A stretch of DNA of 64,000 nucleotides from Alphaproteobacteria bacterium. GTDB taxonomy: Bacteria; Pseudomonadota; Alphaproteobacteria; JAAXGF01. Position 1 is the first letter of the stretch. Each line of letters begins with the position of its first letter. Both the position numbers and the translations under genes were made by a program. The notes under the pieces were generated by a model. It did not search any database and was not told where the DNA came from. It worked only from the letters and a program-made list of their open reading frames with translations. The DNA lies in NCBI GenBank assembly GCA_963555825.3, contig CAUVXB020000002.1, positions 1,664,001 through 1,728,000 on the forward strand, read 5' to 3'. Shown here piece by piece: positions 5,007 through 38,397 of this stretch.

Positions 5007-6227
5007 ATGGCCCGAATCGTCCAGAAGTTCGGCGGCACGTCGCTCGCCGACCTCGACCGCATCAAGACCGTGGCGCAGCGCGTCAAGGCGACGGTCGGGG
5101 CGGGCGATGAGGTCTGCGTCGTCGTCTCGGCGATGGCCGGCGTGACCGACCAGCTGGCCGCCTGGGCGCATGAGGCGATGGCGGTCTACGACGGCTGCGA
5201 ATACGACATGGTGCTCGCGGCCGGCGAGCAGGTGACCGCCGGTCTCCTGGCGCTTGCGTTGCAGGACGCCGGCGTCACGGCGCGCTCCTGGGCCGGCTGG
5301 CAATTGCCGGTGCAGACCGATGATGCGCACGCCAAGGCGAGTATCCGCGCCGTCGAGGTCGCCGCGCTCGAGGCCATGCTGACCGAAGGCGGCGTCGCGG
5401 TGGTGACCGGCTTTCAGGGGCTCGGCGCCGACGGCCGCGTGACGACGCTCGGGCGTGGCGGCTCGGACACTTCGGCAGTCGCGCTGGCCGCAGCGCTTGG
5501 CGCCGAACGCTGCGACATCTACACCGATGTCGAGGGCGTCTATACGGCCGATCCGCGCATCGTTGCGCCGGCCCGCAAGCTTGATAAGATTACCTACGAG
5601 GAGATGCTCGAGCTGGCCTCGCAGGGCGCCAAGGTGCTGCAGACCCGCGCCGTGGCGTTGGCCATGAAGCACCAGGTGCGCGTCCAGGTACTCTCGAGCT
5701 TCAATGATTCCCCCGGAACCCTGGTTGTTGACGAGGACGAAATCGTGGAACAGGAACTGGTCAGCGGCATCGCCTACAGCCGCGACGAGGCGAAGATCAC
5801 TCTGGTCGGCGTGCCCGATCGCCCGGGCGTTGCCGCGGCCATCTTCGGCCCGCTCGCCGACGCCAACGTCAACGTCGACATGATCGTGCAGAACGTCTCG
5901 GCCGACGGCACCTCGACCGACCTCACCTTCACGGTGACCAAGGGCGATCTCGACCGCGCCGTCGGTATCTTGGAGAAGGCGCGCGGCGATCTCGACATCG
6001 GCCAGCTGGTGCCCGACGCGGGCGTCGTCAAGGTCTCGGTCATCGGCGTCGGCATGCGCTCTCACGCGGGCGTCGCCAAGCAGATGTTCCAGGCGTTGGC
6101 CGACAAGGGCATCAACATTCAGGTGATCTCGACATCGGAGATCAAGATCAGCGTGCTGATCGCCGAGGAGTACGTCGAGCTGGCGCTGAGGGCACTGCAT
6201 ACCGCCTACGGCCTCGACGCCGATTGA
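5007..6227 (+). CDS. lysC: Aspartate kinase
   Basis: [31 protein letters not shown], two ACT domains, STSEIKIS. Confidence 0.97.
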
Positions 6228-6409
6228 ATCGGGCCTGTCGCCGGCGAGACGGCGGAAAGTACGCCGCCGAGTGTCCGGGCTGCGAATATTTGGCCGATTT
6301 CGATCCTTTTCCCGGCCACAGCTTGCATGTTATGGTTCACGACTGTAACGACGAGCGCGGCGACTTCGGCTCTAAGGTCGCAGCGACACGACATGAACGA
6401 ACGATAACG

Positions 6410-7678
6410 ATGGCGATTTCCGAAAAGCGCTCGGCTGGCGCGGCGCGCGGGCGCCGGCCGATGCTGCACGCCGTCGGGACCGACGGTGACGATGGCCGCG
6501 AAAGCACGGTCGCGACCGAGCTGGCCCAGACGCGGCTCGCGCTCGGCATCGATCTTGCCACCGTCGCCGACGAGCTGCACATCCGCGAGGAGCATCTCGA
6601 GGCGATCGAGGCGGGCCGCTTCGATGCGTTGCCGGGCCCGACCTACACGATCGGTTTTCTGCGCAGCTATGCCCGGTTCCTCAGCCTCGACAGCGACCGA
6701 TTGATCGACCAGTTCCGCGTCGAATCGGCGGGTTTCGCGGCGCAACGCAAACTGCGCTTTCCATCGCCCATCGATGACGGCCGAATTCCAACCGTACCGG
6801 TCCTGGTCTTCGCCTTGGTGCTTGCCGGGGCAATCGGTTTCGGCTGGTATTACGTCTCCGATGTCGAACAGGTCGCCCAGGAGGGCGTGCCCGAAGTGCC
6901 GGCCCATCTCGTCGCGCCGCCGCCGACGCCGACCCCCGTCGAGGCCGTCGCAATGCCGCAACCGCCGACCGACGTCGCGGTCGCTCTACCGGATCTGCAA
7001 ATTCCGGCGCCGCCGCCAGCCGAGGCGGCGAGCGCGGCCGACGCGCCGGTCGAGGCGGCCGAGGCGCCGGCCGAGACCGGTGTCGCCATCGACATCGCCG
7101 AACTCGATACCGCCGCTGGCGGCGAGGTGCCGGCCCTGCCGTCGGTGGCGCTCGAGCCGCAGCCCGCGGCCGCGCCGGTCGTCGAAGTGCCGGCCGCGTC
7201 GGAGCCGGTCGCTCCCATCGCGCTGATCGAACCCGCCGCCGTGGCGGCCCCCGACGTTACGATCGAGGCGCCGATGCCGCGTGTGCCGGCCGAGACCGCC
7301 GCCGCTGTCGAGGTGGCCGTGACCGCCGCTGCGACGGTCGACGTGCCGGCGCCGGCCGTCACCGATGGCGGCGCCACGCCGCGTGTCTACGGCCAGGCCA
7401 ACACCGATGCGCGCGTCCGACTGCGCGCCACCGAGGAGTGCTGGATTCAGATTACCGGCCCGGGCAACGAGCTGTTGCTGACGCGCATTCTGAAGCCGGG
7501 CGATGTCTATCTGGTGCCGAACCGCCCGGGTATCGTCATGATGACGGGCAACGCCGGCGGCTTGGAGATCGCCCTCGACGGCGAGGTGCTGCCGCCGATC
7601 GGCCCGGCCGGCGCGGTGCGCCGCAACATCGCCCTCGATCCCGAGGCGCTGCGCGCGCACCAGGCGTCGTCGCAGTAG
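6410..7678 (+). CDS. rodZ: RodZ-like protein (HTH, single TM, Pro/Ala-rich linker, DUF4115)
   Basis: LHIREEHLEAIE...GFLRSYARFL HTH, hydrophobic helix, C-terminal TGNAGGL; upstream of ispG-hisS. Start inferred. Confidence 0.85.
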   Translation: MAISEKRSAGAARGRRPMLHAVGTDGDDGRESTVATELAQTRLALGIDLATVADELHIREEHLEAIEAGRFDALPGPTYTIGFLRSYARFLSLDSDRLIDQFRVESAGFAAQRKLRFPSPIDDGRIPTVPVLVFALVLAGAIGFGWYYVSDVEQVAQEGVPEVPAHLVAPPPTPTPVEAVAMPQPPTDVAVALPDLQIPAPPPAEAASAADAPVEAAEAPAETGVAIDIAELDTAAGGEVPALPSVALEPQPAAAPVVEVPAASEPVAPIALIEPAAVAAPDVTIEAPMPRVPAETAAAVEVAVTAAATVDVPAPAVTDGGATPRVYGQANTDARVRLRATEECWIQITGPGNELLLTRILKPGDVYLVPNRPGIVMMTGNAGGLEIALDGEVLPPIGPAGAVRRNIALDPEALRAHQASSQ

Positions 7679-7688
7679 CATGGCGGCG

Positions 7689-7728
7689 CTTTACAGCCGC
7701 GCGCGGTACTTTACAGCCGCGCGCGGTA
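7689..7728. repeat. Perfect 20-bp tandem duplication upstream of ispG
   Basis: CTTTACAGCCGCGCGCGGTA at 7689-7708 and 7709-7728. Confidence 0.95.
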
Positions 7729-7777
7729 TAAGCTATCAGTTGCGGGCCGCGACCCGCGGGACATCCGGGAACTGACC

Positions 7778-8914
7778 ATGAGCGTGCGCCCCTACCGCGA
7801 TATCGACCGCCGCCCCTGTCGCCAGATCTATGTCGGTGACCAACCGGTCGGCGGCGATGCGCCGATCAGCGTGCAGTCGATGACCAACACGCCGACCGCC
7901 GACATCGCCGCGACGATCGCCCAGGTCCGCGCGCTCGAGGTCGCCGGCGCCGACATCGTGCGTATCTCGTGCCCCGACGCCGAATCGAGCGCTGCGCTCA
8001 AGGGCATCGTGCCCGAGGTGACGGTGCCGATCGTCGCCGACATTCACTTCCACTACAAACGCGCCATCGAGGCGGCGGAAGCCGGCGCGGCGTGCCTGCG
8101 CATCAACCCCGGCAACATCGGTTCTAGCGCGCGCGTGCGCGAGGTGGTCAACGCCGCCAAGGCGAATGGCTGCTCGATGCGCATCGGCGTCAACGCCGGC
8201 TCGCTCGGGCGCGACTTGCTCGAGAAATACGGCGAGCCCTGCCCCGAGGCGATGGTCGAGAGCGCGCTCAACCACGCGCGCATCCTCGAGGACAACGACT
8301 TCTTCGAATTCAAGATCAGCGTCAAGGCCTCCGACGTGTTCCTCTCGGTCGCCGCCTATCAGGGCCTGGCCGAAGCCTGCGATTACCCGCTGCACATCGG
8401 CATCACCGAGGCGGGCGGGCTGACCAGCGGTACGGTCAAGTCATCGATCGGGCTGGGCATGCTGTTGTGGTCGGGCATCGGCGACACGCTGCGCGTCTCG
8501 CTGTCGGCCGATCCGGTCGAAGAGGTGCGCGCCGGCTTCGAGATGCTCAAGGCGCTGAACTTGCGCCACCGCGGTGTCAACGTCATCGCCTGCCCGTCCT
8601 GCGCGCGCCAGCAATTCAACGTCATCAAGACGGTCGAGACGCTCGAGGATCGGCTCGCCCACATCCACACGCCGTTGACGCTGTCGGTGATCGGCTGCGT
8701 GGTCAACGGTCCGGGCGAGGCGCGCGAGACCGACATCGGACTGACCGGCGGCGGCAAGGGCAACCATTTGGTTTATTTGAGCGGCGTCGCCGACCACAAG
8801 ATCGAGGACGACCAGTTGGTCGACCACCTGGTCGCGCTGGTCGAGCAGAAGGCCGCCGAGATAGAGGCCGCGGAAGCCGCCGAGCCGACACCCGGCACCG
8901 CGCACTCCAGCTAG
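7778..8914 (+). CDS. ispG: (E)-4-hydroxy-3-methylbut-2-enyl-diphosphate synthase
   Basis: [41 protein letters not shown]. Confidence 0.97.
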
Positions 8915-8931
8915 TCCGAGGAGACGTTTTT

Positions 8932-10176
8932 TTGCCGACCCTCAGGCCGGTTCGCGGCACCCATGACCTGTTGCCCGAGGACAACAGGCGTCACCGCCGG
9001 GTGATCGAGACGTTCCGCGACATCGCCGAGCGCTTCGCCTTCGGCGAGATCGCGACGCCGATCTTCGAGTTCGCCGAGGTATTCAAACGCACCCTTGGCG
9101 AGACCTCGGACATCGTTACCAAGGAGATGTACAGTTTCACCGACCGCGGCGGCGATCTAATCACGCTGCGCCCCGAATACACCGCCGGCATCGCGCGCGC
9201 CTTTATCTCGGGCGGCTTGCGCCAGCAGCTGCCGCTCAAGTTCTACGGCCACGGCCCGATGTTCCGCTACGAGCGGCCGCAGAAGGGCCGCCAGCGCCAG
9301 TTCCACCAGCTCGACGCCGAGATCCTCGGCGTCGCCGAGCCGCTCGCCGACATCGAGGTCATCGCGCTTGGCGCGACCCTGCTCGACGAGCTCGGCATGG
9401 CCAATGTGACCGAACTCGAGCTCAACACGCTGGGTGACCCGGAGAGCCGCGCCGCCTACCGCGCCGCGCTGGTCGACTTCTTCGGGGGCCACCGCGACGC
9501 GTTGTCGGAGGACAGCCTCGTGCGGCTCCACCGCAACCCGCTGCGCATCCTCGATTCGAAGGACGAGGGCGACCGGGCGGTGATCGTCGACGCGCCACTG
9601 ATGGCTGACTATCTCAACGCCGCCTCGACCGACATGTTCGACGCAGTGCGCGCCGGGCTCGACTGCCTCGGCATCGCCTATCGCGTGAATCCCAGGCTGG
9701 TGCGCGGTCTCGATTACTACACGCACACGGCCTTCGAGTTCACGACGCAGGCGCTCGGCGCCCAGGGCGCGGTCATCGCCGGCGGCCGCTACGACGGCTT
9801 GATCGAGGCCATGGGCGGCCCGCCGACGCCGGGCATCGGTTGGGCGGCCGGCATCGAGCGATTGGCCTTGCTGCTTGCCGAGCCGCCCGCGGCGCCCCGG
9901 CCGATCGCGGTCATTCCGGTCGATGCCGGGGCCGAGGACGAGGCGCTCGAACTCACGCACCGGCTGCGCAGGGCGGGCTTCACGGTCGATCTGGGCTATC
10001 GCGGCAACGTCTCGCGGCGCATGAAGCGGGCCAACCGCATGCACGCCCGCGCGGCGCTGTTGCTCGGCGACGACGAACGCGCACGCGGCGCGGTCACATT
10101 GCGTGACCTCGATTCGGGCGAGCAGGTCGAGGTGCCCCTCGCGGAGCTCGAGGACCGGCTCGCGCCCTATCGTTAG
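8932..10176 (+). CDS. hisS: Histidine--tRNA ligase
   Basis: RGTHD, LRPEYTA, FRYERPQKGR, LVRGLDYY, GGRYD; TTG start at 8932 after GAGGAG. Confidence 0.96.
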   Translation: MPTLRPVRGTHDLLPEDNRRHRRVIETFRDIAERFAFGEIATPIFEFAEVFKRTLGETSDIVTKEMYSFTDRGGDLITLRPEYTAGIARAFISGGLRQQLPLKFYGHGPMFRYERPQKGRQRQFHQLDAEILGVAEPLADIEVIALGATLLDELGMANVTELELNTLGDPESRAAYRAALVDFFGGHRDALSEDSLVRLHRNPLRILDSKDEGDRAVIVDAPLMADYLNAASTDMFDAVRAGLDCLGIAYRVNPRLVRGLDYYTHTAFEFTTQALGAQGAVIAGGRYDGLIEAMGGPPTPGIGWAAGIERLALLLAEPPAAPRPIAVIPVDAGAEDEALELTHRLRRAGFTVDLGYRGNVSRRMKRANRMHARAALLLGDDERARGAVTLRDLDSGEQVEVPLAELEDRLAPYR

Positions 10177-10183
10177 CGCCGCC

Positions 10184-11472
10184 ATGAGCGGCCCCCAAAA
10201 CCCACGTTTCCTGCTCGTCGGCGCCAATCATCGCTCGGCGTCGGCCGACCTGCGCGACCGACTGTTCGTCGACGAGAGCGACTTCGGCGATATGTTGTCG
10301 CGCTTGCGCGGCGCGGGTCTCGATCAGGCGCTGTTGCTGTCGACCTGCGATCGGGTCGAGGTGCACGCGCTGCACGCCGACCCGGCGGTTGCCGAGCGGG
10401 CGATCATCGAGACGCTGGCCGCCCACGCCGGGCTCGCGCCGGACGACATCGCCGGCGAGCTGTGCGTCTTGCGCGACGAGGCCGCGGCGCGCCACCTGTT
10501 CGCTATCGCCGCCTCGCTCGAGAGCCTGGTGATCGGCGAACCCTTCGTTCTCGGCCAGGTCAAGGAAAGCCACCGCGCAGCGCGCGCTGCCAATATGGTC
10601 GGCGCCGAACTCGAACGGCTGCTGCAGGCCGCCTACGCGGCGGCCAAGCGCGTGCGCAGCGAAACCGCGATCGGCGAGCGGCCGGTGTCGATCGCCGCGG
10701 CCGCGCTGGCGGTGTCGCGCGATGTTCATGGCGATCTGGCGGGCGCCGCGGGCCTGGTGATCGGCGTCGGCGAGATGGCCGAGTTGGTTGCGCGCCAGAT
10801 GCGTGAGGCCGGGCTTGGCCGTCTCGTCGTCAGCCACCGCTCGGCGGCACGCGCGGCGTCGCTGGCGCGCCGGCTCGACGCCAATGTCCAGCCGATCGAG
10901 GCGCTCGGCGACGCGCTCGCCGCCGCCGACATCGTGATTTGCGACGTCGGTCTGGGCCGCTACGTGCTGACCCGAGATCTGATGGTCGAGGCGCTCGCGC
11001 GACGGCGCCAGCGGCCGGTCTTCGTCGTCGATCTCGCCGTGCCGCCCGACACCGACCCTGCGGTGGTCGAGTTGGACGGCGCCTTCGTATACGATAGCGC
11101 CGATCTGGAGCGCGTCGCTCAGGCCGGCTTGGCCGGTCGCGAGGCCGAATCGGCGGCCGCCTGGCGGGTTGTCGACGCGGCGCTGGCGGATTATCTGCGC
11201 GCCCGGTCGATGCAGGCGGCGGCGCCGGCTATCGTCGCACTGCGCGAGCGGTTCGAGACGGTGCGCGAGGACGTGCTCGCCGAGACCGGCGGCGACGATG
11301 CCTCGGCGGCGACGCGGCTTCTGGTACAGCGCCTCTTGCATGCGCCGAGCGAGGCGCTGCGCGAGATCGCCGGCGAAGACGGCGGCGGCGCGACCCATCG
11401 GCGCGCCGAACGATTGCTGCGCCGCCTGTTCGAGCTGGGCGCCGATGACACGACGACCGAGGAGGACCAGGC

Positions 11473-11476: not shown

Positions 11477-12546
<1,070 letters not shown>

Positions 12547-12554
12547 TCCTTGGT

Positions 12555-13424
12555 ATGAGCGAGACCGTGACCATCGGCGCGGCGCTCGGCGCGGCGTCGC
12601 GGCGGCTCGAGGCAGCCGGTGTCGACGAGGCGCGACGCGACGCCCAGGTGCTGCTCGGCCATGTCCTCGACGCCGGTCGCGAGATCCTGATCGGCTACCC
12701 CGAGCGGCCGCTGACGACCGACCAGGCGATCGCCTTCGACGATCTCGTCGCGCGCCGCGCGCTGCGCGAGCCGGTCGCGCATATCGTCGGCGAACGCGAA
12801 TTCTGGAGCCTTGCCTTCCGGGTCACCGCCGACACGCTGGTGCCGCGACCGGCGAGCGAGACCGTGGTGGCCGCGGCGCTCGATATGGTTGCCGACCGCT
12901 CGGCGCCGCTCACGCTGCTCGACCTCGGTACCGGCAGCGGTTGTCTGTTGCTGACACTGTTGAGCGAGCTGGCGCACGCGCGTGGCGTTGGCGTCGACAT
13001 CAGCCCGGCGGCGCTCGCGGTCGCGCGCGTGAACGCCGATCGTCTTGCGCTGTCGCATCGGGCGCGCTTCCTGTGCGCCGACTGGGGTGGCGCGCTGACC
13101 GGCCGGTTCGATCTGATCGTCGCCAATCCGCCCTATGTCGACGTCGACGAGGTGCTGGCGCCGGAAATCGTCGACTACGAACCCGGCATCGCGCTCTATG
13201 GCGGCGCCGACCCGCTCGACGCGTACCGTGCGCTGGCCGGCGATCTTCGCCGGCTGCTGGCGCCGGGCGGCGCGGCGGCGCTCGAGATCGGCCAAGGGCA
13301 GGCCGCGTCAGTCACCGCTCTGATGGCGCGCGAGGGCCTCGTCGAGACCGCGCGGCGCGCCGATCTCGCCGGCATCGAGCGCTGCCTCGTGCTGCGCCAT
13401 GACGACACATTCGGCGGGTCATGA
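12555..13424 (+). CDS. prmC: Release factor glutamine methyltransferase
   Basis: REPVAHIVG, LVPRP, LDLGTGSG, NPPY; follows prfA. Confidence 0.95.
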   Translation: MSETVTIGAALGAASRRLEAAGVDEARRDAQVLLGHVLDAGREILIGYPERPLTTDQAIAFDDLVARRALREPVAHIVGEREFWSLAFRVTADTLVPRPASETVVAAALDMVADRSAPLTLLDLGTGSGCLLLTLLSELAHARGVGVDISPAALAVARVNADRLALSHRARFLCADWGGALTGRFDLIVANPPYVDVDEVLAPEIVDYEPGIALYGGADPLDAYRALAGDLRRLLAPGGAAALEIGQGQAASVTALMAREGLVETARRADLAGIERCLVLRHDDTFGGS

Positions 13425-13618
13425 GAAAAAAGTTCTTGGAATGTGGCGGCGTCTTGATAAAGTACCGCCCCAGATGGATCCGCGAGATAGACCATCGGGG
13501 CCATGAGGGCTCCGGCGCCGCCGTAGGCGGGCGAACAGGTTCCATCCGCTACTGACAACGACAATTGAAGCGAGCGGCAGCGTGCCGCTGCGCATTTGGG
13601 AAATGAAATGAAGCAGTC

Positions 13619-13969
13619 ATGAGACCTGGCTTCCATTCAAAACGGCCGCGTAACAATCGTTCCAATCCCCGCAGAGGGCCGTCGAACAATCGTTCGAACT
13701 CCTTCGACAGCAACGGCCCCGACGTCAAGGTGCGGGGAAACGCCAACCAGATTTGCGAGAAATATCTGTCTCTTGCGCGGGATGCGACCTCATCCGGCGA
13801 CCGTGTCATGGCCGAAAGCTATCTTCAGCACGCCGAGCACTACCAGCGGATCGTCAATGCGAACGGATCGGCCCAACGGACCGATCAGGCGGCCCAGCCC
13901 CGGGCAAGCGGAGAAGTCAAGCCGACAGCCGACGACGTCGAGGAGCCGGTAGCCGCCGCGCGGTCCTGA
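13619..13969 (+). CDS. DUF4167 family protein
   Basis: FDSNGPDVKVRG...EKYLSLARDA...GDRVMAESYLQHAEHY; standard position after prmC. Confidence 0.9.
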   Translation: MRPGFHSKRPRNNRSNPRRGPSNNRSNSFDSNGPDVKVRGNANQICEKYLSLARDATSSGDRVMAESYLQHAEHYQRIVNANGSAQRTDQAAQPRASGEVKPTADDVEEPVAAARS

Positions 13970-14099
13970 CCCGGTAACGCCCGGTCTCGGCCGGGCCGTT
14001 TCCGAAGGCAACGATGTGACAGTGTGCCGGCGCCGCCGGTAGGCGGACCATCCGTGTCGAATACGGACGCTAGCCACACGATGTGTGGCCTGGCTTGTG

Positions 14100-14136
14100 T
14101 GGCATGCCAAATTCCTTATACAATGTCAATATGCCA
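14100..14136. promoter_or_regulatory. Candidate GntR/FadR-type operator region upstream of tctC
   Basis: Perfect palindrome TGGCATGCCA (14100-14109) plus related CCTTATACAA and CAATATGCCA in an AT-rich patch. Confidence 0.4.
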
Positions 14137-14246
14137 CGGGGAGGCGCTGCCCTGACCGGGAGCGATCGTGGATGTTTACCTGCCATCCGGCGGGGCGTAC
14201 GCTACACGTTCCCGACTAAGAGAGTTGGCCCAATAGGGAGGATCCA

Positions 14247-15236
14247 ATGAATAACTTGCTGAAATCAGCAATGCTTGCGTTTGGTACCGTGGCGCTGCTC
14301 GGACTCGGTACGACGGTCACCGCGCAGGACGCCGCCGCGGCGTGGCAGCCCAAGAAACCGGTCGAATTCGTCATCATGGCCGGCAAGGGTGGCGGCGCCG
14401 ACAAGATGGCGCGGCTCATGCAGACGATCATCGAGAAACACGGCCTGTCATCGAAGCCGTTCGTGCCGATCAACAAGCCGGGCGGTTCGGGCGCCGAGTC
14501 GCTGATCTATCTGAAGCAGCACGATGGCGACAACCACGTCATCATGGTCACGCTCAACAGCTTCTACACCACGCCGTTGCGCCAGCCTGACCTCGGCGTC
14601 GACATCTCGACCTTCACGCCGATCGGCCGCATGGCCGAGGACACGTTCCTGTTGTGGGTGAATTCCGACACCGACATCATGAACGTCGGCGACTTCGTCA
14701 AGGCCGCCAAGGCGGCCGGCAACGACTGGATCATGGCGGGCACCGGCAAGGGCCAGGAGGACCAGCTCCTTACCACGTTCCTCAACAATGCCTATGGCCT
14801 CGACATGAAGTACGTGCCGTACAAGGGCGGCGGCCGCGTCGCCAAGGAGCTGGCCGGCAACAACGCCCACTCGACGGTCAACAATCCGTCCGAGCAGCTC
14901 GGTTTCTGGGAGGCCGGCAAGACGCGCGCACTGGCCACGTTCACGGCCGGGCGGCTGGCCGTCTTCCCGGACGTGCCGACCTTCAAGGAGCTCGGCAAGG
15001 ACTACGTCTACTTCATGCAGCGCAGCGTGGTCGGCGCGCCGGGCATGAGCGAGGAGGCCGAGACTTTTTACCGCAACGTCTTCGCCCAGGTCTACGCCAG
15101 CGACGAGTGGCAGGGGTACATGGCCAAGAAGAGCCTGCTGGGCGGCTTCCTGACGGGCGCCTCGCTGAAATCCTATTGGACGCGCGAGCGCGCGATCCAC
15201 GAGACCATTCTCAAGGATATCGGCGAGATCAAGTAA
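14247..15236 (+). CDS. tctC: Tripartite tricarboxylate transporter substrate-binding protein (TctC/Bug)
   Basis: Signal peptide, WQPKKPVEFVI..G.GGGAD, NKPGGSG, VPYKGGG, PDVPTFKE. Confidence 0.9.
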   Translation: MNNLLKSAMLAFGTVALLGLGTTVTAQDAAAAWQPKKPVEFVIMAGKGGGADKMARLMQTIIEKHGLSSKPFVPINKPGGSGAESLIYLKQHDGDNHVIMVTLNSFYTTPLRQPDLGVDISTFTPIGRMAEDTFLLWVNSDTDIMNVGDFVKAAKAAGNDWIMAGTGKGQEDQLLTTFLNNAYGLDMKYVPYKGGGRVAKELAGNNAHSTVNNPSEQLGFWEAGKTRALATFTAGRLAVFPDVPTFKELGKDYVYFMQRSVVGAPGMSEEAETFYRNVFAQVYASDEWQGYMAKKSLLGGFLTGASLKSYWTRERAIHETILKDIGEIK

Positions 15237-15288
15237 GCGGGGCGCGTCTCCGCACCGCGTAGGCGTTAGTAGGGAGAGGACCGCGATC

Positions 15289-15795
15289 ATGCGGCGGGCC
15301 GAACTCGTCATGGCCGCCACGATGGCGGTCTTCTCCCTTTACTTGATGTGGAAGAGCGCGGAGCTGCCGGTCGGCTGGATACCCGGCGAAGGACCGGGCG
15401 GCGGGGCGTTCTCGTTCTGGCTGTCGGCGGGCATGCTGGTCTGCTGCGGCGCGATCATCGTCAAGTGGTTCCGGCGGACCAGCCCGCAGTCGCGCTCTGA
15501 CGAGCCCTACATCGACGCGCGCGGCCTCAAGCTGGTCGGCGTCGCCGCCGGCTCGCTCACCGTCATGATCGGTCTGATCCACATCATCGGCGTCTATGGC
15601 TCGGTGCCGCTGTTCATGCTCTTCTACATGCGCTACATGGGCCGCCACCCGTGGCTGATGACGAGTGGCGTCGCGCTGGCCATGCCGGTCGTCACCTTCT
15701 TTTTCTTCGAGATCGCCTTGAACATCACCCTGCCCAAGGGGCTGCCGGTGATCGAGGAGACGATCTTCTACCCCTTGTTCGACATCTTCTTATGA
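15289..15795 (+). CDS. tctB: Tripartite tricarboxylate transporter small membrane subunit
   Basis: 168 aa, 4-5 TM helices, GPGGG and C-terminal LPKG; lies between tctC and tctA. Confidence 0.85.
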   Translation: MRRAELVMAATMAVFSLYLMWKSAELPVGWIPGEGPGGGAFSFWLSAGMLVCCGAIIVKWFRRTSPQSRSDEPYIDARGLKLVGVAAGSLTVMIGLIHIIGVYGSVPLFMLFYMRYMGRHPWLMTSGVALAMPVVTFFFFEIALNITLPKGLPVIEETIFYPLFDIFL

Positions 15796-15902
15796 GCATG
15801 TCGCGCGGGACTATGAGCGCCGCCGGCGCACCGCCGGACGCGTGGCGGGCGCACGGCCGAACGACGGCGACCGGCGAATCCGCAGGCAGCGGCTGAGCGA
15901 CG

Positions 15903-17423
15903 ATGGATATTCTCAATCTTCTGATCGGCGGGTTCGCCGTCGCCTTCGAACCGCTCAACCTGGCGGTCATCGTCGTCGGCTGCGCGGTCGGCCTGTTCGT
16001 CGGCGCGATGCCGGGGCTGGGCTCGGTCAACGGCGTCGCCATCCTGTTGCCGATGACCTTCCTGGTGCCGCCGACCTCGGCGATCATTTTCCTCGCCGCG
16101 ATCTATTACGGCGCCATGTACGGCGGCGCGATCTCCTCGATCATGCTCGGCATACCCGGCGCCTCGACGGCGGTCGCCACGGTGTTCGATGGCCGGCCCA
16201 TGGCGATGGCCGGCAAGGCCGACAAGGCGCTGGTCGCGGCGGCGACGGCATCCTTCGTCGGCGGCACCATCTCGGTGGTGCTGTTCACGCTGTTCGCCCC
16301 GCCGCTCGCCGAGGTCGCACTGACCTTCGGCTCGCCCGAGATCTTCGCGCTGATGATCCTGGCCTTCGCGACCTTCATCGGGTTGGGCGGCGACGACATA
16401 GCGAAGACGCTGTTCTCGATTTTCATCGGTCTGGTGATGAGCGCCGTCGGCCTCGACATCATAAGCGGCCAGCCGCGGCTGATCTTCATGGATCTGCCCG
16501 GCTTCTACCACGGCATCAACTTCCTGGTTCTGGCGATCGGCATCTACGGCATCGGCGAGATACTGTGGACCATCGAGACGACCAGGGGCGAGATGACGCT
16601 GTCGAAGGCGACGGTGTCGTTCCGCGGCATCGTCGCCAACATTGCCGCGCTGCGCCACAACATCAGATCGATGGTGATGGGCTCGTTCCTGGGCTATTTC
16701 GTCGGCATCCTGCCGGCCGCCGGCGCGACGCCGGCCTCGCTGATGGCCTATGGCGTCGCCAAGACCATCGCCAAGGACCCCGAGAGCTATGGCAAGGGCA
16801 ACGTCGACGGCGTGGTGGCGCCCGAAGCGGCGAACAACGCGGCGTCGACCGGCTCGATGCTGCCGATGCTGACGCTCGGCATTCCAGGCTCGCCGACGAC
16901 CGCGATCCTGCTCGGCGGCATGGTCATCTGGGGGCTCGAGCCGGGCCCGCTCCTGTTCGTCGAGCACAGTGACTTCGTCTGGGGCCTGATCGCCAGCCTC
17001 TATGCCGCCAACCTGTTCGCGGTGCTGATCAACATCGCCTTCATCCCGGCGTTCATCTACATGCTCAAGACGCCGTTCACCGTGCTCGCGCCGGTTATCT
17101 TCGTGCTGTGCATCATCGGCGGCTACGCGCCGACCCAGGACATGCACGATATCTGGCTGATGCTGATCTTCGGCGTCGTCGGCTATCTGATGCGCAAGCT
17201 CGACTACCCGATGGCTCCCGCCGTGCTCGCCATCGTGCTCGGGCCGCTCGCCGAGCCGGCGATGCGCCAATCGCTGCTGATCTCGAACGGTTCGTTCATG
17301 ATCTTCTTCGAGCGGCCGTTCGCCGGCGTCATCATGGTCACCGCCATCGCGCTGTTCCTGCTGCCGCTGATCCGGGTGCTGAAGCGCGCGCGCGGCAAGG
17401 GCGAGGGGGGTACGGCGGCGTAG
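15903..17423 (+). CDS. tctA: Tripartite tricarboxylate transporter large membrane subunit
   Basis: GAMPGLG, YYGAMYGG, DGRPMA, APEAANNA, LTLGIPGS. Confidence 0.93.
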   Translation: MDILNLLIGGFAVAFEPLNLAVIVVGCAVGLFVGAMPGLGSVNGVAILLPMTFLVPPTSAIIFLAAIYYGAMYGGAISSIMLGIPGASTAVATVFDGRPMAMAGKADKALVAAATASFVGGTISVVLFTLFAPPLAEVALTFGSPEIFALMILAFATFIGLGGDDIAKTLFSIFIGLVMSAVGLDIISGQPRLIFMDLPGFYHGINFLVLAIGIYGIGEILWTIETTRGEMTLSKATVSFRGIVANIAALRHNIRSMVMGSFLGYFVGILPAAGATPASLMAYGVAKTIAKDPESYGKGNVDGVVAPEAANNAASTGSMLPMLTLGIPGSPTTAILLGGMVIWGLEPGPLLFVEHSDFVWGLIASLYAANLFAVLINIAFIPAFIYMLKTPFTVLAPVIFVLCIIGGYAPTQDMHDIWLMLIFGVVGYLMRKLDYPMAPAVLAIVLGPLAEPAMRQSLLISNGSFMIFFERPFAGVIMVTAIALFLLPLIRVLKRARGKGEGGTAA

Positions 17424-17484
17424 CGACCGCCGATAGACGCCGATCGATGGCGACGTGCTTGCGGTGGGCGATGTATTAGATATA

Positions 17485-17494
17485 TTGTATACCA
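17485..17494. promoter_or_regulatory. Candidate GntR/FadR operator upstream of the regulator gene
   Basis: TTGTATACCA, one mismatch from palindromic TGGTATACCA, in an AT-rich patch ~60 bp before ATG 17551. Confidence 0.45.
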
Positions 17495-17550
17495 GAAATC
17501 TCGAGGTCGCCCGGGCGCCCACGTCCCGGCACCGAACGGAGCGTTTCGAC

Positions 17551-18240
17551 ATGGCCACCGTGCGCGCCAACGTTCAGCCGATCGACGTCACCGTCAGCCT
17601 GACGGACAAGACCTACGACGCGCTGAAGGCCGCGATCACCTCGATGAACATCTATGATGCGCCGGGCGAGCCCAGGCTCGACGAACGCCAGCTCGCCGCG
17701 GACCTGGGCGTCAGCCGGACGCCGATCCGCGAGGCGATCGCGCGGCTCGAGCAGGAGGGCTTCCTGCGCATCGAGGCGCGGCGCGGCGTCTTCATCGTGC
17801 GCAAGACAAAACGCGAAGTGCTCGAGATGATCACCGTCTGGGCGGCGCTCGAGGGCATGGCGGCCCGGCTCGTCACCGAGCACGCGTCCGACGCCGAGAT
17901 CGCCACCCTGCGCGAGATGTTCGCCACCTTCGAGAGCGGCCAGGTCGAGGCCAAGATCGACGAATATTCCGAGACCAACATCAGCTTCCACCAAGCGCTC
18001 TTGCGCCTCGGCAAGTGCGATCTCTTGAACCAGATCGCCGAGAACCTGTTCATCCACATGCGCTCGATCCGCATGCGGACGATCGCCGAGGACCACCGGG
18101 CGAGCCGCTCGATCATCGACCACATGAACATCATCGAGGCGCTCGAGCAGCGTGACACCGAGCTCGCCGAGCGTCTGGCGCGCCAGCACACGCTCGACCT
18201 CGGCGCCCATGTCGAGAAGAACGTCGACTATCTCGACTGA
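17551..18240 (+). CDS. GntR family (FCD domain) transcriptional regulator
   Basis: LDERQLAADLGVSRTPIREA wHTH; FCD His residues (SFHQ, IDH, RQH). Confidence 0.92.
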   Translation: MATVRANVQPIDVTVSLTDKTYDALKAAITSMNIYDAPGEPRLDERQLAADLGVSRTPIREAIARLEQEGFLRIEARRGVFIVRKTKREVLEMITVWAALEGMAARLVTEHASDAEIATLREMFATFESGQVEAKIDEYSETNISFHQALLRLGKCDLLNQIAENLFIHMRSIRMRTIAEDHRASRSIIDHMNIIEALEQRDTELAERLARQHTLDLGAHVEKNVDYLD

Positions 18241-18288
18241 CGAATGGCTCGACCGAACAACGGCGCCTGCGGGCGACGGGAGGAGACC

Positions 18289-20007
18289 ATGGCTGAAGCG
18301 GCAAAGAACGTCACAGAGATAAGGGCGCCCTCGGGCAAGATTTCGGGCGGCCACCTGGTCGCCAAGGCGCTCAAGAACGAGGGTGTCGACGTCATCTTCA
18401 CGCTGTGCGGCGGCCATATCATCGACATCTACGACGGCTGCCTCGACGAGGGCATCAAGATCATCGACGTGCGTCACGAGCAGGTCGCCGCCCACGCCGC
18501 CGACGGCTATGCGCGGATGACCGGCAAGCCGGGCTGCGCCGTGGTCACCGCCGGGCCGGGCACGACCGACGCGATGACCGGAGTCGCCAACGCCTTCCGC
18601 GCCGAAAGCCCGTTCCTCCTGATCGGCGGCCAGGGCTCGCTGAGCCAGCACAAGATGGGCTCGCTGCAGGACCTGCCGCATGTCGACATGATGCTGCCGA
18701 TCACCAAGTTCGCCGCCACCGTGCCGTCGACCGCGCGCATCGCCGACATGGTCTCGATGGCGTTCCGCGAGTGCTATAACGGCGCGCCCGGCCCGTCGTT
18801 CCTCGAGATTCCACGCGACGTGCTCGACGCCGAGGTCGATCTCGATGCGGCGCGCATCCCCGAGGCCGGCCGCTACCGCGCCTCGACCAAGCTTGCCGCC
18901 GACCCCGACGACGTCGAGCGGCTGGCCGACATCCTGGTCGCGTCCGAGCGCCCCTGCGTGTTGTTCGGCACCCAGGTGTGGACCTCGCGGGCGCATCAGG
19001 AGGCGCGCGAATTCGCCCGCACCCTCAACATCCCGGCCTATCTCAACGGCGCCGCGCGTGGCACGTTCGCGCCGGGCGATCCGCACCACTTCCACCGCAC
19101 CCGGCGCATGGCCTTCGACAAGGCCGACGTCATCGTCATCGTCGGCACGCCGTTCGACTTCCGCATGGGCTACGGCAAGCGCCTGCGCGCCGACGCGACG
19201 GTCGTGCAGATCGACATGGACTACCGCACCGTCGGCAAGAACCGCGACATCTCGCTCGGCCTGGTCGGCGACATCGGCCGCGTGCTCGGCGCGGTGACCC
19301 AGGCGACGACCGGCCGCGTCGACAACGGCGCCGGGGGCCGCCAGGCGTGGCTCGACGAGCTGCGCGCCGAAGAGATCGTGCGCACCGAGAAGCTGATGCC
19401 CGAGTTCACCTCCAGCGCGACGCCGATCAACCCCTATCGCGTCGCCTGGGAGATCAACGAGTTCCTCACCGAGGACACCATCTACATCGGTGACGGCGGC
19501 GACGTCGTGACGATTAGTGCCCAGGCCGTGCAGCCGCATACGCCGGGCCACTGGATGGACCCGGGCCCGCTCGGCACGCTCGGCGTCGGCGTGCCCTTCG
19601 CGATGGCGGCCAAACTCGCCCATCCCGACAAGGAGGTGCTGTGCTATTTCGGCGACGGCGCCTTCTCGCTGACCGGCTGGGACTTCGAGACCTGCGTGCG
19701 TTTCGGCCTGCCGTTCCTCGGCGTCGTCGGCAACAATTCGGCGATGAACCAAATCCGCTGCGGCCAGATCATCAAATACGGCGAGAACCGCGGCGACGTC
19801 GGCAACATCCTGGGCGACGTGCCCTACGGCAAGTTCGCCGAGATGCTCGGCGGCCACGGCGAGGATGTGCGCGATCCCGATCAGATCCGTCCGGCGCTCG
19901 AGCGCGCCCGCGAGGCGGTCGCCGGCGGCCAGCCGGCGCTGGTCAACATTTGGGTCGACCGCGATATCTGGGCGCCCGGCACGCGCAACCAGACGATGTA
20001 CAAATGA
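18289..20007 (+). CDS. ThDP-dependent enzyme; probable oxalyl-CoA decarboxylase / 2-hydroxyacyl-CoA lyase type
   Basis: VRHEQ catalytic Glu, TAGPG, GDG...NN ThDP motif, LCGGHI; 37 bp upstream of frc. Substrate inferred from context. Confidence 0.75.
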   Translation: MAEAAKNVTEIRAPSGKISGGHLVAKALKNEGVDVIFTLCGGHIIDIYDGCLDEGIKIIDVRHEQVAAHAADGYARMTGKPGCAVVTAGPGTTDAMTGVANAFRAESPFLLIGGQGSLSQHKMGSLQDLPHVDMMLPITKFAATVPSTARIADMVSMAFRECYNGAPGPSFLEIPRDVLDAEVDLDAARIPEAGRYRASTKLAADPDDVERLADILVASERPCVLFGTQVWTSRAHQEAREFARTLNIPAYLNGAARGTFAPGDPHHFHRTRRMAFDKADVIVIVGTPFDFRMGYGKRLRADATVVQIDMDYRTVGKNRDISLGLVGDIGRVLGAVTQATTGRVDNGAGGRQAWLDELRAEEIVRTEKLMPEFTSSATPINPYRVAWEINEFLTEDTIYIGDGGDVVTISAQAVQPHTPGHWMDPGPLGTLGVGVPFAMAAKLAHPDKEVLCYFGDGAFSLTGWDFETCVRFGLPFLGVVGNNSAMNQIRCGQIIKYGENRGDVGNILGDVPYGKFAEMLGGHGEDVRDPDQIRPALERAREAVAGGQPALVNIWVDRDIWAPGTRNQTMYK

Positions 20008-20044
20008 CGCGCAACGGACAAACAAATAGGCGACGAGGCAACCC

Positions 20045-21286
20045 ATGACCAAGGCACTCGACGGCATCCGCATTCTCGACATGACGCATGTTCAGTCGGG
20101 ACCCACCGCGACCCAGATCCTCGCCTGGTTCGGCGCCGACGTGATCAAGGTCGAGCTGCCCGGCCGCGGCGACATCACGCGCGGCCAGCTGCGCGATAAG
20201 CCCGACGTCGACAGCCTCTATTTCACGATGCTCAACTGCAACAAGCGGAGCATCACGCTCAACACCAAGACCGAGCGCGGCAAGGCGATCTTCGCCAAGC
20301 TGATCGAGGCCTGCGACGTCATCGTCGAGAACTTCGCGCCCGGCGCCCTGGCGCGCCAGGGATTCGACTGGGAAACCATCCACGGCATCAACCCGCGCAT
20401 CGTCTACGCCTCGATCAAGGGCTTCGGCCCGGGGCCCTTCGAGGATTGCAAGGTCTACGAGAACGTCGCCCAATGCACCGGCGGCTCGGCCTCGACGACC
20501 GGCTTCGACGACGGCCCGCCACTCGTCACCGGCTCGCAGATCGGCGATACGGGTAGCGGCATCCACTGCGTCGCGGGCATCCTGGCGGCGCTCATTCACC
20601 GCGACAAGACCGGGCTCGGTCAGCGCGTCGAGGTCGCCATGCAGGACGCCGTACTCAACCTCTGCCGGGTCAAGCTGCGCGACCAGCAGCGCCTCGCCCA
20701 CGGCCCCCTCAGGGAATATCCGCAGTACCCCAACGGCCAGTTCGGCGAGGCCGTGCCGCGCGCCGGCAACGCCTCGGGCGGCGGCCAGCCGGGCTGGGCG
20801 GTGCAGACCAAGGGCAACGGCCCCAACGACTACATTTATGTCATCATCCAGCCGCCCGCCTGGGCCAAGCTGATGACCATCATCGGCCGCGAGGAGCTGA
20901 TCGAGGACCCCGAATGGGCGACGCCCGAGGCGCGCCTGCCCAAACTCGACCAGTGCTTCGCGATGATCGAGGAATGGACCAAGACCAAGGACAAGTTCGA
21001 GGTCATGGAGATCCTCAATCGCGAGAACCTGCCCTGCGGCCCGATCCTCAGCATGAAGGAGCTGTTGGAGGACGAATCGCTCGCCGCGCGCGGCACCATT
21101 GTCGAGGTCGAGCACCCCGAGCGCGGTGTCTTCAAGACCGTCGGCAACCCGATCAAACTGTCGAACTCGCCGGTCGAGGTGACCACCTCGCCGCTCTTGG
21201 GTGAGCACACCGACGAAATCCTCAAGCGGGTCGTCGGCCTCGACGACGGCGAGATCGCGGCGGCGCGCGAAGCGGGCGCGGTCTGA
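20045..21286 (+). CDS. frc: Formyl-CoA transferase (class III CoA-transferase)
   Basis: [34 protein letters not shown] (catalytic Asp), [11 protein letters not shown] glycine loop, VKLRDQQRL. Confidence 0.93.
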
Positions 21287-21311
21287 CAGGCGCGGGACCG
21301 GAGGCGGAAGC

Positions 21312-22229
21312 ATGCGCATCGTCGTCAACGGACAACAGGCCTTCGGCAAGGCGGTGCTCGATGCGCTGATCGAGCGCGGCGAGGACGTCGTCGCGGTCTA
21401 CGGCGCGCCCGAGAAAGCGGGCCAGCGCGCCGATCCGCTGAAGCAGGCGGCGCTCGAACACGGCTTGCCGGTCTACCAGCCGGCGTCGTTCAAGACGGCG
21501 CAGGTGCGCGACGAATTCGCCGCGCTCGAAGCCGACCTCGCCGTCATGGCCTTCGTCACGCTGTTGGTGCCCGAGACGATCTTGAACCTGCCCGCCAAGG
21601 GCACGATCCAGTATCACCCGTCGCTGCTGCCGCGCCACCGGGGCCCGAGCTCGATCAACTGGCCGATCATCCAGGGCGCGACGAAGACCGGGCTGACCAT
21701 CTTCTGGCCCGACGAGGGCCTCGATACCGGACCGGTGCTGCTGCAGAAAGAGATCGAGATCGCCGATGACGCGACGCTCTGCAGCCTCTACTTCGACCAC
21801 CTGTTCCCGATGGGCGTCCAGGCCATGGTCGAGGCCGTCGATCTGGTGCGCGATGGCACGGCGCCCCGCATCGCGCAAGACGAGCGGCAGACCACCTACG
21901 AGAGCTGGTGTCGCGCCGCCGACGTCGAGATCGATTGGACGAGGCCGCAGCAGGAAGTCTGGAACCTGATCCGCGGCGCCAATCCACAGCCCGGCGCCTG
22001 GACGCGCCACGACGGCGAAACGCTGCTGCTCTACGACGCGGCCAAGCTGCCGGCCGCCGGCGCGCATCGCCCGGGCGAGGTGGTCGCGGCGGACGCCAAG
22101 GGCATCACCGTCGCCGCCGGCGACGGCTATATCCAAATCCATCGTGTCCGCCCCGAGGGCGGCAAGAAGATCGATGCCGCCGACTTCGTTGCGGCAAGCA
22201 GCCTGACTGCGGGAGCCGTTCTAGGCTGA
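21312..22229 (+). CDS. Formyltransferase of the FMT superfamily resembling the ALDH1L1 N-terminal (10-formyl-THF) domain
   Basis: IQYHPSLLPRHRGPSSINW, IFWPDEGLDTG, SLYFDHLFPMGVQAMVEAV, IRG...PGAW; 25 bp after frc. Confidence 0.85.
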   Translation: MRIVVNGQQAFGKAVLDALIERGEDVVAVYGAPEKAGQRADPLKQAALEHGLPVYQPASFKTAQVRDEFAALEADLAVMAFVTLLVPETILNLPAKGTIQYHPSLLPRHRGPSSINWPIIQGATKTGLTIFWPDEGLDTGPVLLQKEIEIADDATLCSLYFDHLFPMGVQAMVEAVDLVRDGTAPRIAQDERQTTYESWCRAADVEIDWTRPQQEVWNLIRGANPQPGAWTRHDGETLLLYDAAKLPAAGAHRPGEVVAADAKGITVAAGDGYIQIHRVRPEGGKKIDAADFVAASSLTAGAVLG

Positions 22230-22266
22230 GCGATAGAAACGTTACGCAAGCATGGGGAATCGAACG

Positions 22267-22701
22267 ATGCAAGTTTCAGACATTCTCAAGACCGACCAAG
22301 ACGTCGTCACCATTGCCACCGACCGGACCATCGCCGAGGTCGCTCACACTTTGGCGGGCACGCGCGTCGGCGCCATCGTCGCGACCGACACGTCGGGCAA
22401 GCTGGCCGGCATCATCTCGGAACGCGACATCGTCCGCGCGCTCAACGAGCATGGCGCCGCGTTGCTCGCCATGCGCGTCGAGGAACTGATGACCAGCTCG
22501 GTCATCACCTGCACGCCCGACAGCAGCATCGTCGAGGTCATGAAGCTGATGATCGAGCACCACATCCGCAACCTTCCGGTGCTGGAGGATGGCGTGCTGG
22601 TCGGCGTTGTCACCATCCTCGACGTGGTGCGCTCGCGCCTCGCCGAGGTCGAGACCGACTACGGCACCCTGCGCGAGTTCATGGCCACGCGCATCGAGTA
22701 G
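22267..22701 (+). CDS. CBS domain protein
   Basis: GIISERDIV, LMT..VITC, HIRNLPV...LVGVV CBS pair. Confidence 0.9.
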   Translation: MQVSDILKTDQDVVTIATDRTIAEVAHTLAGTRVGAIVATDTSGKLAGIISERDIVRALNEHGAALLAMRVEELMTSSVITCTPDSSIVEVMKLMIEHHIRNLPVLEDGVLVGVVTILDVVRSRLAEVETDYGTLREFMATRIE

Positions 22702-22715
22702 GCGCATCGCGCCGT

Positions 22716-22744
22716 CTTGTTGGCGCCGGGAGGGATGCCCATAT
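22716..22744 (+). promoter_or_regulatory. Probable RpoH (sigma32) promoter of clpB
   Basis: CTTG (22716-19) - N18 - CCCATAT (22738-44), upstream of a heat-shock gene. Confidence 0.7.
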
Positions 22745-22748
22745 AATC

Positions 22749-22833
22749 TGTGACCGCTCTTCGGAGGGTCGCACGAGGGATCGGCCGCTTTTCGGAGGGC
22801 CGCTCACGCACCTGACCGCTCAGCCGAGGGTTA
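22749..22833 (+). ncRNA. Structured clpB leader: three G-bulged hairpins (ROSE-like candidate)
   Basis: GACC-G-CTC-TTCG-GAG-GGTC; GGCC-G-CTT-TTCG-GAG-GGCC; GACC-G-CTC-AGCC-GAG-GGTT. Confidence 0.6.
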
Positions 22834-22846
22834 TGGGAGACGCCGC

Positions 22847-25444
<2,598 letters not shown>

Positions 25445-36846: not shown

Positions 36847-36977
36847 ATGCATAAAATCAAGAATTCGATCCTGGCAAGCGGGCTGACGATAGCATTGGCC
36901 GGTTGTGTCGGGATGGAGAAGGACATGGCGGCCGAGATGACGCCGGCGGGTTCGGCGTTCAATCAGGCGCTTTACGG
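36847..36977 (+). pseudogene. OmpA-family lipoprotein, 5' fragment
   Basis: MHKIKNSILASGLTIALAGC (lipobox LAGC)...FNQALYG; joins in frame to 55015-54259. Confidence 0.88.
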
Positions 36978-37022
36978 TGAGTCGGACCCGATTTCCTTGG
37001 ACACAGAATTGGCTTAATCGAA

Positions 37023-38362: not shown

Positions 38363-38397
38363 GACAAACTTGTGTCCAAGGAACCGGGTGCGATACA

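Follow-up and report, generated by a model that had tools for sequence, protein, structure and literature searches.

The window analysed here is a 64,000-nt stretch of an alphaproteobacterial contig (CAUVXB020000002.1, positions 1,664,001 to 1,728,000). On its plus strand, a gene for a thiamine diphosphate (ThDP) enzyme is followed by frc, which encodes formyl-coenzyme A (CoA) transferase, and by a gene for a stand-alone formyltransferase, here called FT (Table 1). The ThDP gene and frc are separated by 37 nt, frc and FT by 25 nt, and FT and the gene of a CBS-pair protein by 22 nt. The start ATG of FT is preceded by GGAGG, and its translation holds the segments NGQQAFGK, ADPL, IQYHPSLLP, TIFWPDEGLDTG and SLYFDHLFPMGVQAMVEAV. 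An initial annotation, made from the letters and open reading frames (ORFs), had described the three co-directional genes with the first two gaps, and the ORFs and translations agree with it exactly; all motifs that it quoted, including IQYHPSLLP in place of NxHxSLLP, are present in FT. It had proposed formyl transfer between formyl-CoA and tetrahydrofolate (THF). By analogy with characterised relatives, we regard FT as a candidate 10-formyl-THF:CoA / formyl-CoA:THF formyltransferase. The family to which it belongs is real and large, it is tied to frc, and it is mis-annotated: databases label it as methionyl-tRNA formyltransferase.

We compared FT with solved structures by phmmer. The N-terminal domains of rat, human and zebrafish 10-formyl-THF dehydrogenase (FDH, also ALDH1L1; the domain is FDH-N) ranked first in the PDB (7rlu 4.4e-64, 1s3i 6.9e-64, range to 1e-58). 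Lower ranks were taken by Fmt (4iqf 6e-48, 1fmt 9.5e-48), ArnA (about 4e-29) and HypX (3e-10), so the likeness to ALDH1L1 that the initial annotation noted is borne out. FT is 36-40% identical to the FDH-N structures and 32-35% identical to Fmt. On the Fmt equivalog TIGR00460 it scores 186 bits, below the cut-off of 201.5. The genome encodes three members of the formyltransferase family. One is a true Fmt (252.1 bits on TIGR00460, encoded between def and truA), which is 34% identical to FT, and another is PurN-like. The PurU model TIGR00655 is not among the NCBIfam matches of FT at E<=1e-5, and no protein of the genome exceeds the PurU cut-off; the best score, at the PurN-like locus, is 100.6 against 285.95. 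FT consists of two formyltransferase domains only, and the listed family members have about 300-333 aa (search range 167-534 aa).

A search of 1.84 billion representatives gave 2009 relatives of FT at E<=1e-30. For the phylogeny, we filtered the best 150 of these to 285-345 aa and added the true Fmt of the genome, three ALDH1L1-like fragments (formyltransferase plus Aldedh domains) and seven close members of the family; P0129, P0183 and P0188 were left out for their aberrant motif regions. The tree was a quick IQ-TREE run with support from the SH-like approximate likelihood-ratio test (SH-aLRT). A branch with SH-aLRT 99 parts 46 Fmt-type rows from a clade of 52 rows, and FT stands apart from Fmt in the phylogeny that the initial annotation had asked for. 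The larger clade contains FT's own clade (22 rows, SH-aLRT 99), the ALDH1L1-like rows (100) and other bacterial subclades. In this quick tree, FT and the ALDH1L1-like rows share the 52-row clade and form separate subclades within it.

The motif region divides the sequences in the same way. Fmt-type rows carry Asn two positions before the catalytic His (N-x-H) in 49 of 49 cases, including all 46 rows of the tree, and FT has Gln100 instead. The motif is IQYHPSLLP in the FT family and I-[IC]-Y-H-P-S in the ALDH1L1-like rows. Six residues, Q100, Y101, H102, R110, D138 and Y196, are invariant across the close family (121 of 121 members). The key residues of FDH include His106, Arg114, Asp142 and Tyr200 (PMC4388273), and by alignment they correspond to H102, R110, D138 and Y196 of FT. 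The counterpart of FDH Ser108, S104, is also conserved, and Leu, Ile or Phe occupies the position of Phe89. After strand 2, FT and the ALDH1L1-like rows have a loop that is five residues shorter than in all four Fmt rows compared. The longer loop of Fmt has a role in tRNA recognition. Together, these comparisons support the assignment of FT, at the level of sequence, to the putative ALDH1L1-N type and not to Fmt.

The AlphaFold2 model of FT has a pLDDT of 96.3. In Foldseek, the template modelling (TM) scores are 0.84-0.89 for FDH-N, 0.90-0.95 for Fmt and 0.69 for HypX, and the best E-value is that of FDH-N (8.9e-37). The fold comparison does not separate FDH-N from Fmt and shows a two-domain formyltransferase only. 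As a separate observation, W199 and C200 (21906-21911 of the window), just past the Tyr196 loop, are invariant in the same 121 close family members, and other residues occupy these positions in the ALDH1L1-like and Fmt rows. They could form a family-specific catalytic or binding feature.

The frc gene is clear. Its product scores 663.7 bits on TIGR03253 (cut-off 504.2) and passes this equivalog, its best PDB match is E. coli YfdW (1pt5, 2.2e-152), and it is the sole over-cut-off copy in the genome. The ThDP enzyme stays below the NCBIfam cut-offs: 469.6 against 587 on PRK05858, 245.5 against 557 on the oxalyl-CoA decarboxylase (Oxc) model PRK09259, 350.6 against 600 on NF058623 (actinobacterial 2-hydroxyacyl-CoA lyase) and 223 against 739.4 on the Oxc model TIGR03254. 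In the PDB, HACL/S structures (8vza 1e-78, 7pt3 4.8e-74) rank before Oxc (2q27 1.1e-56, 2c31 1.2e-44). The TIGR03254 score and this ranking rule out a canonical Oxc, and no protein in the whole genome exceeds the TIGR03254 cut-off. The longest ORF of the ThDP gene spans 18244-20007, and the start listed in Table 1 is the ATG at residue 16. The same slot in other genomes is filled by an orthologue of this enzyme or by a true Oxc; the gene of Pelagibius litoralis DSM 21314, for example, scores 984.1 on TIGR03254. We read the window's enzyme as a predicted formyl-CoA-forming decarboxylase or lyase that would act on oxalyl-CoA or a 2-hydroxyacyl-CoA.

To examine the linkage of FT to frc, we took the 80 loci with the nearest relatives of FT (59-71% identity), which belong to Alpha- and Gammaproteobacteria and come mostly from marine or soil metagenome-assembled genomes (MAGs). 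The end of frc lies no more than 1.5 kb upstream of FT in 38 of them. With a limit of 700 nt, FT lies behind frc in 37 loci, and in two more frc is found at another place in the locus. Those 37 loci have a HACL-like ThDP gene in front of frc in 15 cases and a true Oxc in 14, and the contig ends first in eight. The linkage of frc and FT holds whichever ThDP gene precedes frc.

Presence and absence across genomes give the same picture. We sampled 401 genomes of the same class and called FT at E<=1e-60 and >=46% identity, and frc when its score exceeded the cut-off. FT was found in 32 genomes, frc in 38 and both in 28; frc is thus present in 28 of 32 genomes with FT and in 10 of 369 without it. 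Among the four FT genomes that lack an over-cut-off frc, the frc of one is truncated at a contig end (G375), one has a frc-like gene of 442.7 bits (G312), and two are fragmented assemblies (G143, G283). Conversely, G166, scored as frc-positive without FT, contains an FT fragment cut by the contig end. In a sample of 371 genomes of the same phylum, frc occurs in 7 of 7 genomes with FT and in 13 of 364 without. The co-occurrence with frc for which the initial annotation proposed a neighbourhood survey is therefore found both in the loci and in the genomes. In the class sample, the 32 genomes with FT come from 25 genera. One of these genomes, G240, is an unpublished genome and was counted as positive for FT and frc, as fhs-less and as a case of frc beside a ligase; those counts partly rest on it.

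Adjacent frc and FT genes were also seen in small streamlined genomes of 1.4 Mb (G030, G339) and 1.7-1.9 Mb (G616, G673), the latter two with two tandem frc copies. This suggests that the pair matters even under genome reduction.

The neighbours of FT include fhs, the gene of formate-THF ligase (Fhs), with the usual order ThDP-frc-FT-fhs. In 29 of the 80 FT-seeded loci, fhs lies directly downstream of FT and starts about 50-600 nt after it. The class sample has fhs in 184 of 401 genomes, namely in 30 of 32 with FT and 154 of 369 without, and fhs adjoins FT in 12 of the 32. The genome of the window also contains fhs (897.6 bits). The initial annotation had expected fhs to be absent and FT to bypass the ligase, and these counts contradict it.

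What takes the place of FT where it is missing can be seen in frc-positive genomes without FT. In three of them (G270, G367, G352), the gene behind frc encodes an ADP-forming acyl-CoA ligase with the domains ATP-grasp_5, CoA_binding, Succ_CoA_lig and Ligase_CoA_2, which is below every NCBIfam cut-off. In others, we found a succinate-CoA ligase pair beside frc (G250), a YfdE-type CoA:oxalate transferase upstream of frc (669.6 bits, above the cut-off of 522; G069) or a PanE-like reductase beside frc (G399). No such gene lies beside frc in G357, G374 and G120. We also took 80 loci seeded with frc, a broader set that covers Streptomyces, Burkholderia, Bradyrhizobium, Acidobacteriota and MAGs of the delta group. 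Within 700 nt behind frc, it contains the ADP-forming ligase in 23 loci, a SucC-like gene in 5, FT in 9 (8 at >=45% identity, L169 at 44%), a PanE-like gene in 2, something else or nothing in 38 and a contig end in 3. No locus with FT also has the ADP-forming ligase, either among these 9 or among the 39 loci of the FT-seeded set that have both frc and FT. We also considered whether FT strictly excludes every other thioester supplier; it does not, as SucCD-like genes and the genome level show.

Two further observations were made in these sets. An operon of a HACL-like ThDP gene, frc and the ADP-forming ligase occurs in Streptomyces, Saccharopolyspora, Burkholderia/Paraburkholderia and delta-group MAGs (L153, L154, L158, L161, L165, L167, L171, L172, L175 and L183, at about 5300-10300 in each; also L145, L148, L149 and L106-L110). 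The ligase in it passes no NCBIfam cut-off and may act on oxalate or on formate. A passage of PMC13409138 speaks of a "missing oxc" in frc-positive actinobacteria, and the HACL-like enzyme of this operon may be that protein. In Pelagibius/Kiloniellaceae, clusters of oxc-frc-FT-fhs are followed by tctCBA and a SucCD-like pair (about 11800-16700; L022, L027, L031, L033, L048, L052, L055, L060). A beta subunit related to this pair in L105 scores 593.3, just below the malate-CoA ligase cut-off of 604, a hint of a connection to malyl-CoA or the serine cycle.

We propose that FT probably interconverts 10-formyl-THF + CoA and formyl-CoA + THF. This chemistry is the most economical one because FT is of the ALDH1L1-N type and is tied to frc by adjacency and by presence and absence. 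To this extent the transfer proposed in the initial annotation stands as the function that best suits the context; the bypass of formate-THF ligase attached to it does not. As to the role of the reaction, we tentatively favour a reversible transfer that serves as an accessory to the formyl-CoA cycle, with supply of formyl-CoA, that is priming and replenishing of the Frc cycle, as its net effect. In this cycle, Frc would move CoA from formyl-CoA onto oxalate or a closely similar acid, and the ThDP enzyme would then regenerate formyl-CoA. Such a cycle is closed: it could neither start by itself nor recover from losses, which would arise by hydrolysis and by oxalyl-CoA drawn off to glyoxylate. 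In quenched reaction mixtures, formyl-CoA has a half-life of 1.9 h according to a supplementary-figure legend, and when formyl-CoA is missing, the enzyme described as the one that "primes" the Frc/Oxc cycle is YfdE (both PMC3720670).

Under the supply role, Fhs would convert formate, ATP and THF to 10-formyl-THF, and FT would pass the formyl group on to CoA with release of THF. The net reaction would be formate + ATP + CoA -> formyl-CoA + ADP + Pi, with THF as the carrier. This would equal the reaction expected of the ADP-forming ligase, which fits the exclusion of the two within loci. In other frc operons this task falls to YfdE or an ADP-forming CoA ligase, and FT would most likely take it on here. 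Supply would work only while Frc keeps formyl-CoA low, and reverse flux would stay possible. At steady state, no ATP could be harvested from formyl-CoA either. The conversion of oxalate to formate and CO2 yields too little free energy for one ATP per turn. On a wider and still more tentative view, Fhs and FT might form a folate-mediated, ATP-driven "formyl-CoA synthetase" that starts and sustains the activation of oxalate by Frc. The textbook pathway of two enzymes would then have a third component for thioester supply, filled in various bacteria by at least three unrelated solutions: FT (with Fhs), the ADP-forming CoA ligase and YfdE-type transferases.

Several points weigh against this interpretation. 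The equilibrium of the FT reaction should lie towards 10-formyl-THF, since a thioester is more energy-rich than an N10-formyl group. In 41-42 of the 80 FT-seeded loci there is no frc nearby and the neighbouring genes are unrelated; in five of these loci the sequence before FT is shorter than 1.5 kb. The significance of the co-occurrence counts is overstated, because related genomes cannot be treated as independent. In the window's genome, fhs lies outside the operon, 152 kb away, and G240 and G307 have FT without fhs, a pattern that suits the direction from formyl-CoA to folate. SucCD-like genes, a possible thioester source, are found some kb from FT in 13 of the 39 loci with frc and FT; hence FT is not always the sole candidate primer. 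An orthologue of the ADP-forming ligase (>=71% identity) is present in three FT genomes (G240, G307, G084), in all of which FT is not adjacent to frc. Finally, we infer both CoA as the thiol, from gene context and analogy, and the direction of transfer.

The closest competitor is a net flux in which FT drains formyl-CoA and THF to 10-formyl-THF and CoA and thereby captures one-carbon units for biosynthesis or a serine cycle without free formate. The family assignment and the frc linkage speak for it as much as for supply, its direction should be downhill by general thermodynamics, and the cost of activation could be paid by the SucCD-like genes just mentioned or, in the two fhs-less genomes, by the ADP-forming ligase beside frc. 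We nevertheless consider it rather unlikely and favour supply over it. FT accompanies Fhs and does not replace it, as the fhs counts show, and the exclusion of FT and the ADP-forming ligase within loci better fits two answers to the question of thioester supply. Moreover, each formyl-CoA activates the next substrate molecule, so a drain to folate would save no ATP overall: by stoichiometry, every formyl-CoA removed would halt one turn of the Frc cycle, and each formyl-THF would cost one thioester, the same as with Fhs. The ATP saving claimed in the initial annotation is lost with this calculation. FT might instead act on another acceptor, such as a phosphopantetheinyl carrier encoded elsewhere, a small thiol or a substrate-linked amine metabolite. 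The closest characterised relative uses the arm of a carrier protein, about half of the FT loci are not beside frc, and W199 and C200 hint at a feature of the close family only. This explanation is improbable, as it leaves the tie to frc at the genome level unexplained. The gaps in the operon have no space for a carrier gene (elsewhere fhs starts about 50-600 nt past FT), and no recurrent partner was found at the frc-less loci when their ORFs of >=100 aa were clustered and 10 representatives were scanned (ORFs <100 aa were not clustered). The 10 were a DEAD helicase, GyrB, an aminotransferase, an ABC ATPase, a hydrolase and five proteins without a family.

A CoA-independent 10-formyl-THF hydrolase, which would release formate and THF in the manner of PurU, is more improbable still. 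The isolated FDH N-domain does hydrolyse 10-formyl-THF in vitro (PMC8748788, PMC4388273), and the genome has no over-cut-off PurU of its own. That FDH-N reaction, however, itself passes via a thiol, beta-mercaptoethanol in vitro (PMC4388273). A hydrolase would also create an ATP-wasting loop with Fhs, whose gene so often directly follows FT, and would leave the near-restriction of FT to frc-positive genomes unexplained. That FT is a second methionyl-tRNA formyltransferase, as the source annotations say, can hardly be right. Its fold is as near to Fmt as to FDH-N, and TIGR00460 does match it; but the match stays below the cut-off, the genome already holds a true Fmt in a def-fmt-truA arrangement, all 121 close family members have Gln where Fmt has Asn, the five loop residues after strand 2 are missing, and the tree splits the two groups with high support.

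The surroundings of the three genes are listed in Table 1. The operon begins upstream of the ThDP gene, at tctC, and the CBS-pair gene is possibly its last gene. The tctC-type gene is kept upstream of the ThDP, frc and FT genes in related loci, and an orthologue of the GntR/FCD regulator lies upstream of the ThDP gene in most loci with frc and FT. The small ORF in the tctB position has no NCBIfam match at E<=1e-5. Neither a carrier-protein gene nor an ALDH gene fits into the gaps of the ThDP-frc-FT operon, in line with the initial annotation, and the gene after FT is that of the CBS-pair protein. In L001, L004, L005 and L006, the four closest loci, FT is followed by the same CBS-pair gene, which stands where most other frc-FT operons have fhs. 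Housekeeping genes flank the row: upstream those of aspartokinase, RodZ, IspG, HemA, PrfA and PrmC, and downstream, after the CBS-pair gene, that of ClpB.

Table 1. Genes of the frc-FT region, in window coordinates, with the evidence for their assignment
Feature	Coordinates	Strand	Evidence
tctC-type periplasmic binding protein, tripartite tricarboxylate transporter	14247..15236	+	Pfam TctC 4.6e-24
tctB-position small ORF, 168 aa	15289..15795	+	GC content at third codon positions (GC3) 0.93; assigned by position only
tctA large membrane subunit	15903..17423	+	Pfam TctA 9.9e-145
GntR/FCD-family regulator	17455..18240	+	Pfam GntR and FCD domains
ThDP enzyme, HACL/Oxc group	18289..20007	+	Pfam TPP_enzyme_N, M, C
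frc, formyl-CoA transferase	20045..21286	+	TIGR03253 oxalate_frc over cut-off
FT, stand-alone ALDH1L1-N-type formyltransferase (putative), 305 aa	21312..22229	+	Pfam Formyl_trans_N and Formyl_trans_C
CBS-pair protein, 149 aa	22252..22701	+	Pfam CBS x2, 6.2e-27

We scanned 13300-23000 for promoters and terminators. The scan gave 1 and 5 sites where shuffles gave 1.2 and 4.2 and is uninformative; past the CBS-pair gene it marks a hairpin-like site at 22701-22713 and then a promoter-like site at 22720-22747, no better than in shuffles. Two RNA libraries of one study (X1, X2) contain exact contigs that bridge 19881-20138 (ThDP-frc), 21021-21355 (frc-FT) and 22187-22612 (FT-CBS). We rejected these contigs as proof of a single transcript because contigs of RNA libraries may derive from DNA, and they count solely as presence of the sequence in metatranscriptome libraries. 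The word depth in these libraries is 68-82 for contigs of tctC and 3-8 for contigs of the enzyme genes; contig depth is a poor measure, and this is a hint only.

Elsewhere in the window, two inverted copies of 1429 nt (36970-38398 and 55029-56457) are 100% identical and bracket 16.6 kb; each holds one 143-aa and one 303-aa ORF and is insertion-sequence-like. A second repeat, direct and also 100% identical, lies at 31412 and 46211 with a 374-aa ORF in each copy, and a DDE transposase is encoded at 35356-36711. In a 1403-aa ORF on the minus strand (49854-54065), copies of an internal repeat of about 999 nt, 76-80% identical, lie at 51010, 52006 and 53005.

Accounts of the Frc/Oxc cycle give it two enzymes, but it cannot start without a first thioester. 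If our reading is true, many marine and soil Proteobacteria would close this gap with a starter or buffer linked to folate, and a large family labelled methionyl-tRNA formyltransferase would be re-annotated. A free-standing enzyme would join the folate and CoA pools of activated formate, which would be useful for synthetic formate and formyl-CoA pathways. The FT family would also represent the bacterial stand-alone relatives of the domain that is fused into animal ALDH1L1. The chemistry proposed for FT is not new; its role in an oxalate-type cycle is undescribed in the literature searched, in which no paper assigned a formyltransferase to the frc/oxc pathway. Passages of a 2024 review of oxalotrophy name Oxc, Frc, oxalyl-CoA reductase and OxlT only (PMC13409138).

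Among known systems, the N-domain of ALDH1L1/FDH (7rlu, 1s3i, 2bw0, 4qpd) is the closest to FT in solved sequence. Both have the Formyl_trans_N and C build, the aromatic-His motif without the Asn of Fmt, the short loop, the His/Ser/Asp set and the Arg and Tyr of the folate site. FDH-N hands the formyl group of 10-formyl-THF to the thiol of a 4'-phosphopantetheine arm (PMC8748788), and its in vitro "hydrolase" reaction also goes through a thiol (PMC4388273). Unlike ALDH1L1/FDH, FT stands alone, with no carrier or ALDH domain, in a bacterial and catabolic operon; it has Gln100 where the ALDH1L1-like rows have Ile or Cys, and in the quick tree it falls in a subclade separate from these rows. Fmt (1fmt, 4iqf) shares the fold (TM up to 0.95), the Pfam domains and the conserved His, Ser and Asp, and differs from FT in the cut-off, the Asn, the loop length and the clade.

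The initial annotation knew of no description of the activity, yet transfer from 10-formyl-THF to CoA is in print for two proteins. For the N-domain of HypX (6j0p, 6j1f) it was proposed before the work on LctF (PMC6802093). HypX-N has the formyltransferase fold and binds THF, but is distant from FT in sequence and structure and is fused to an enoyl-CoA-hydratase-like decarbonylase domain; its CoA is permanently bound, the Ser of the triad is replaced, and its role is the synthesis of a CO ligand. YfdE/UctC, an acetyl-CoA:oxalate CoA-transferase, shares the proposed role of FT, provision of the first thioester in a frc/oxc operon (PMC3720670), but is an unrelated class III CoA-transferase with acetyl-CoA and not 10-formyl-THF as the donor. 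LctF, from the lactacystin pathway of Streptomyces lactacystinicus, was shown in 2025 to transfer formyl from 10-formyl-THF to CoA in vitro (PMC11730586). It is stand-alone like FT and 32% identical to Fmt (PMC11730586); its reaction is the one proposed here for FT, and LctF feeds a loading step of a polyketide synthase/nonribosomal peptide synthetase, whereas FT sits in a frc operon.

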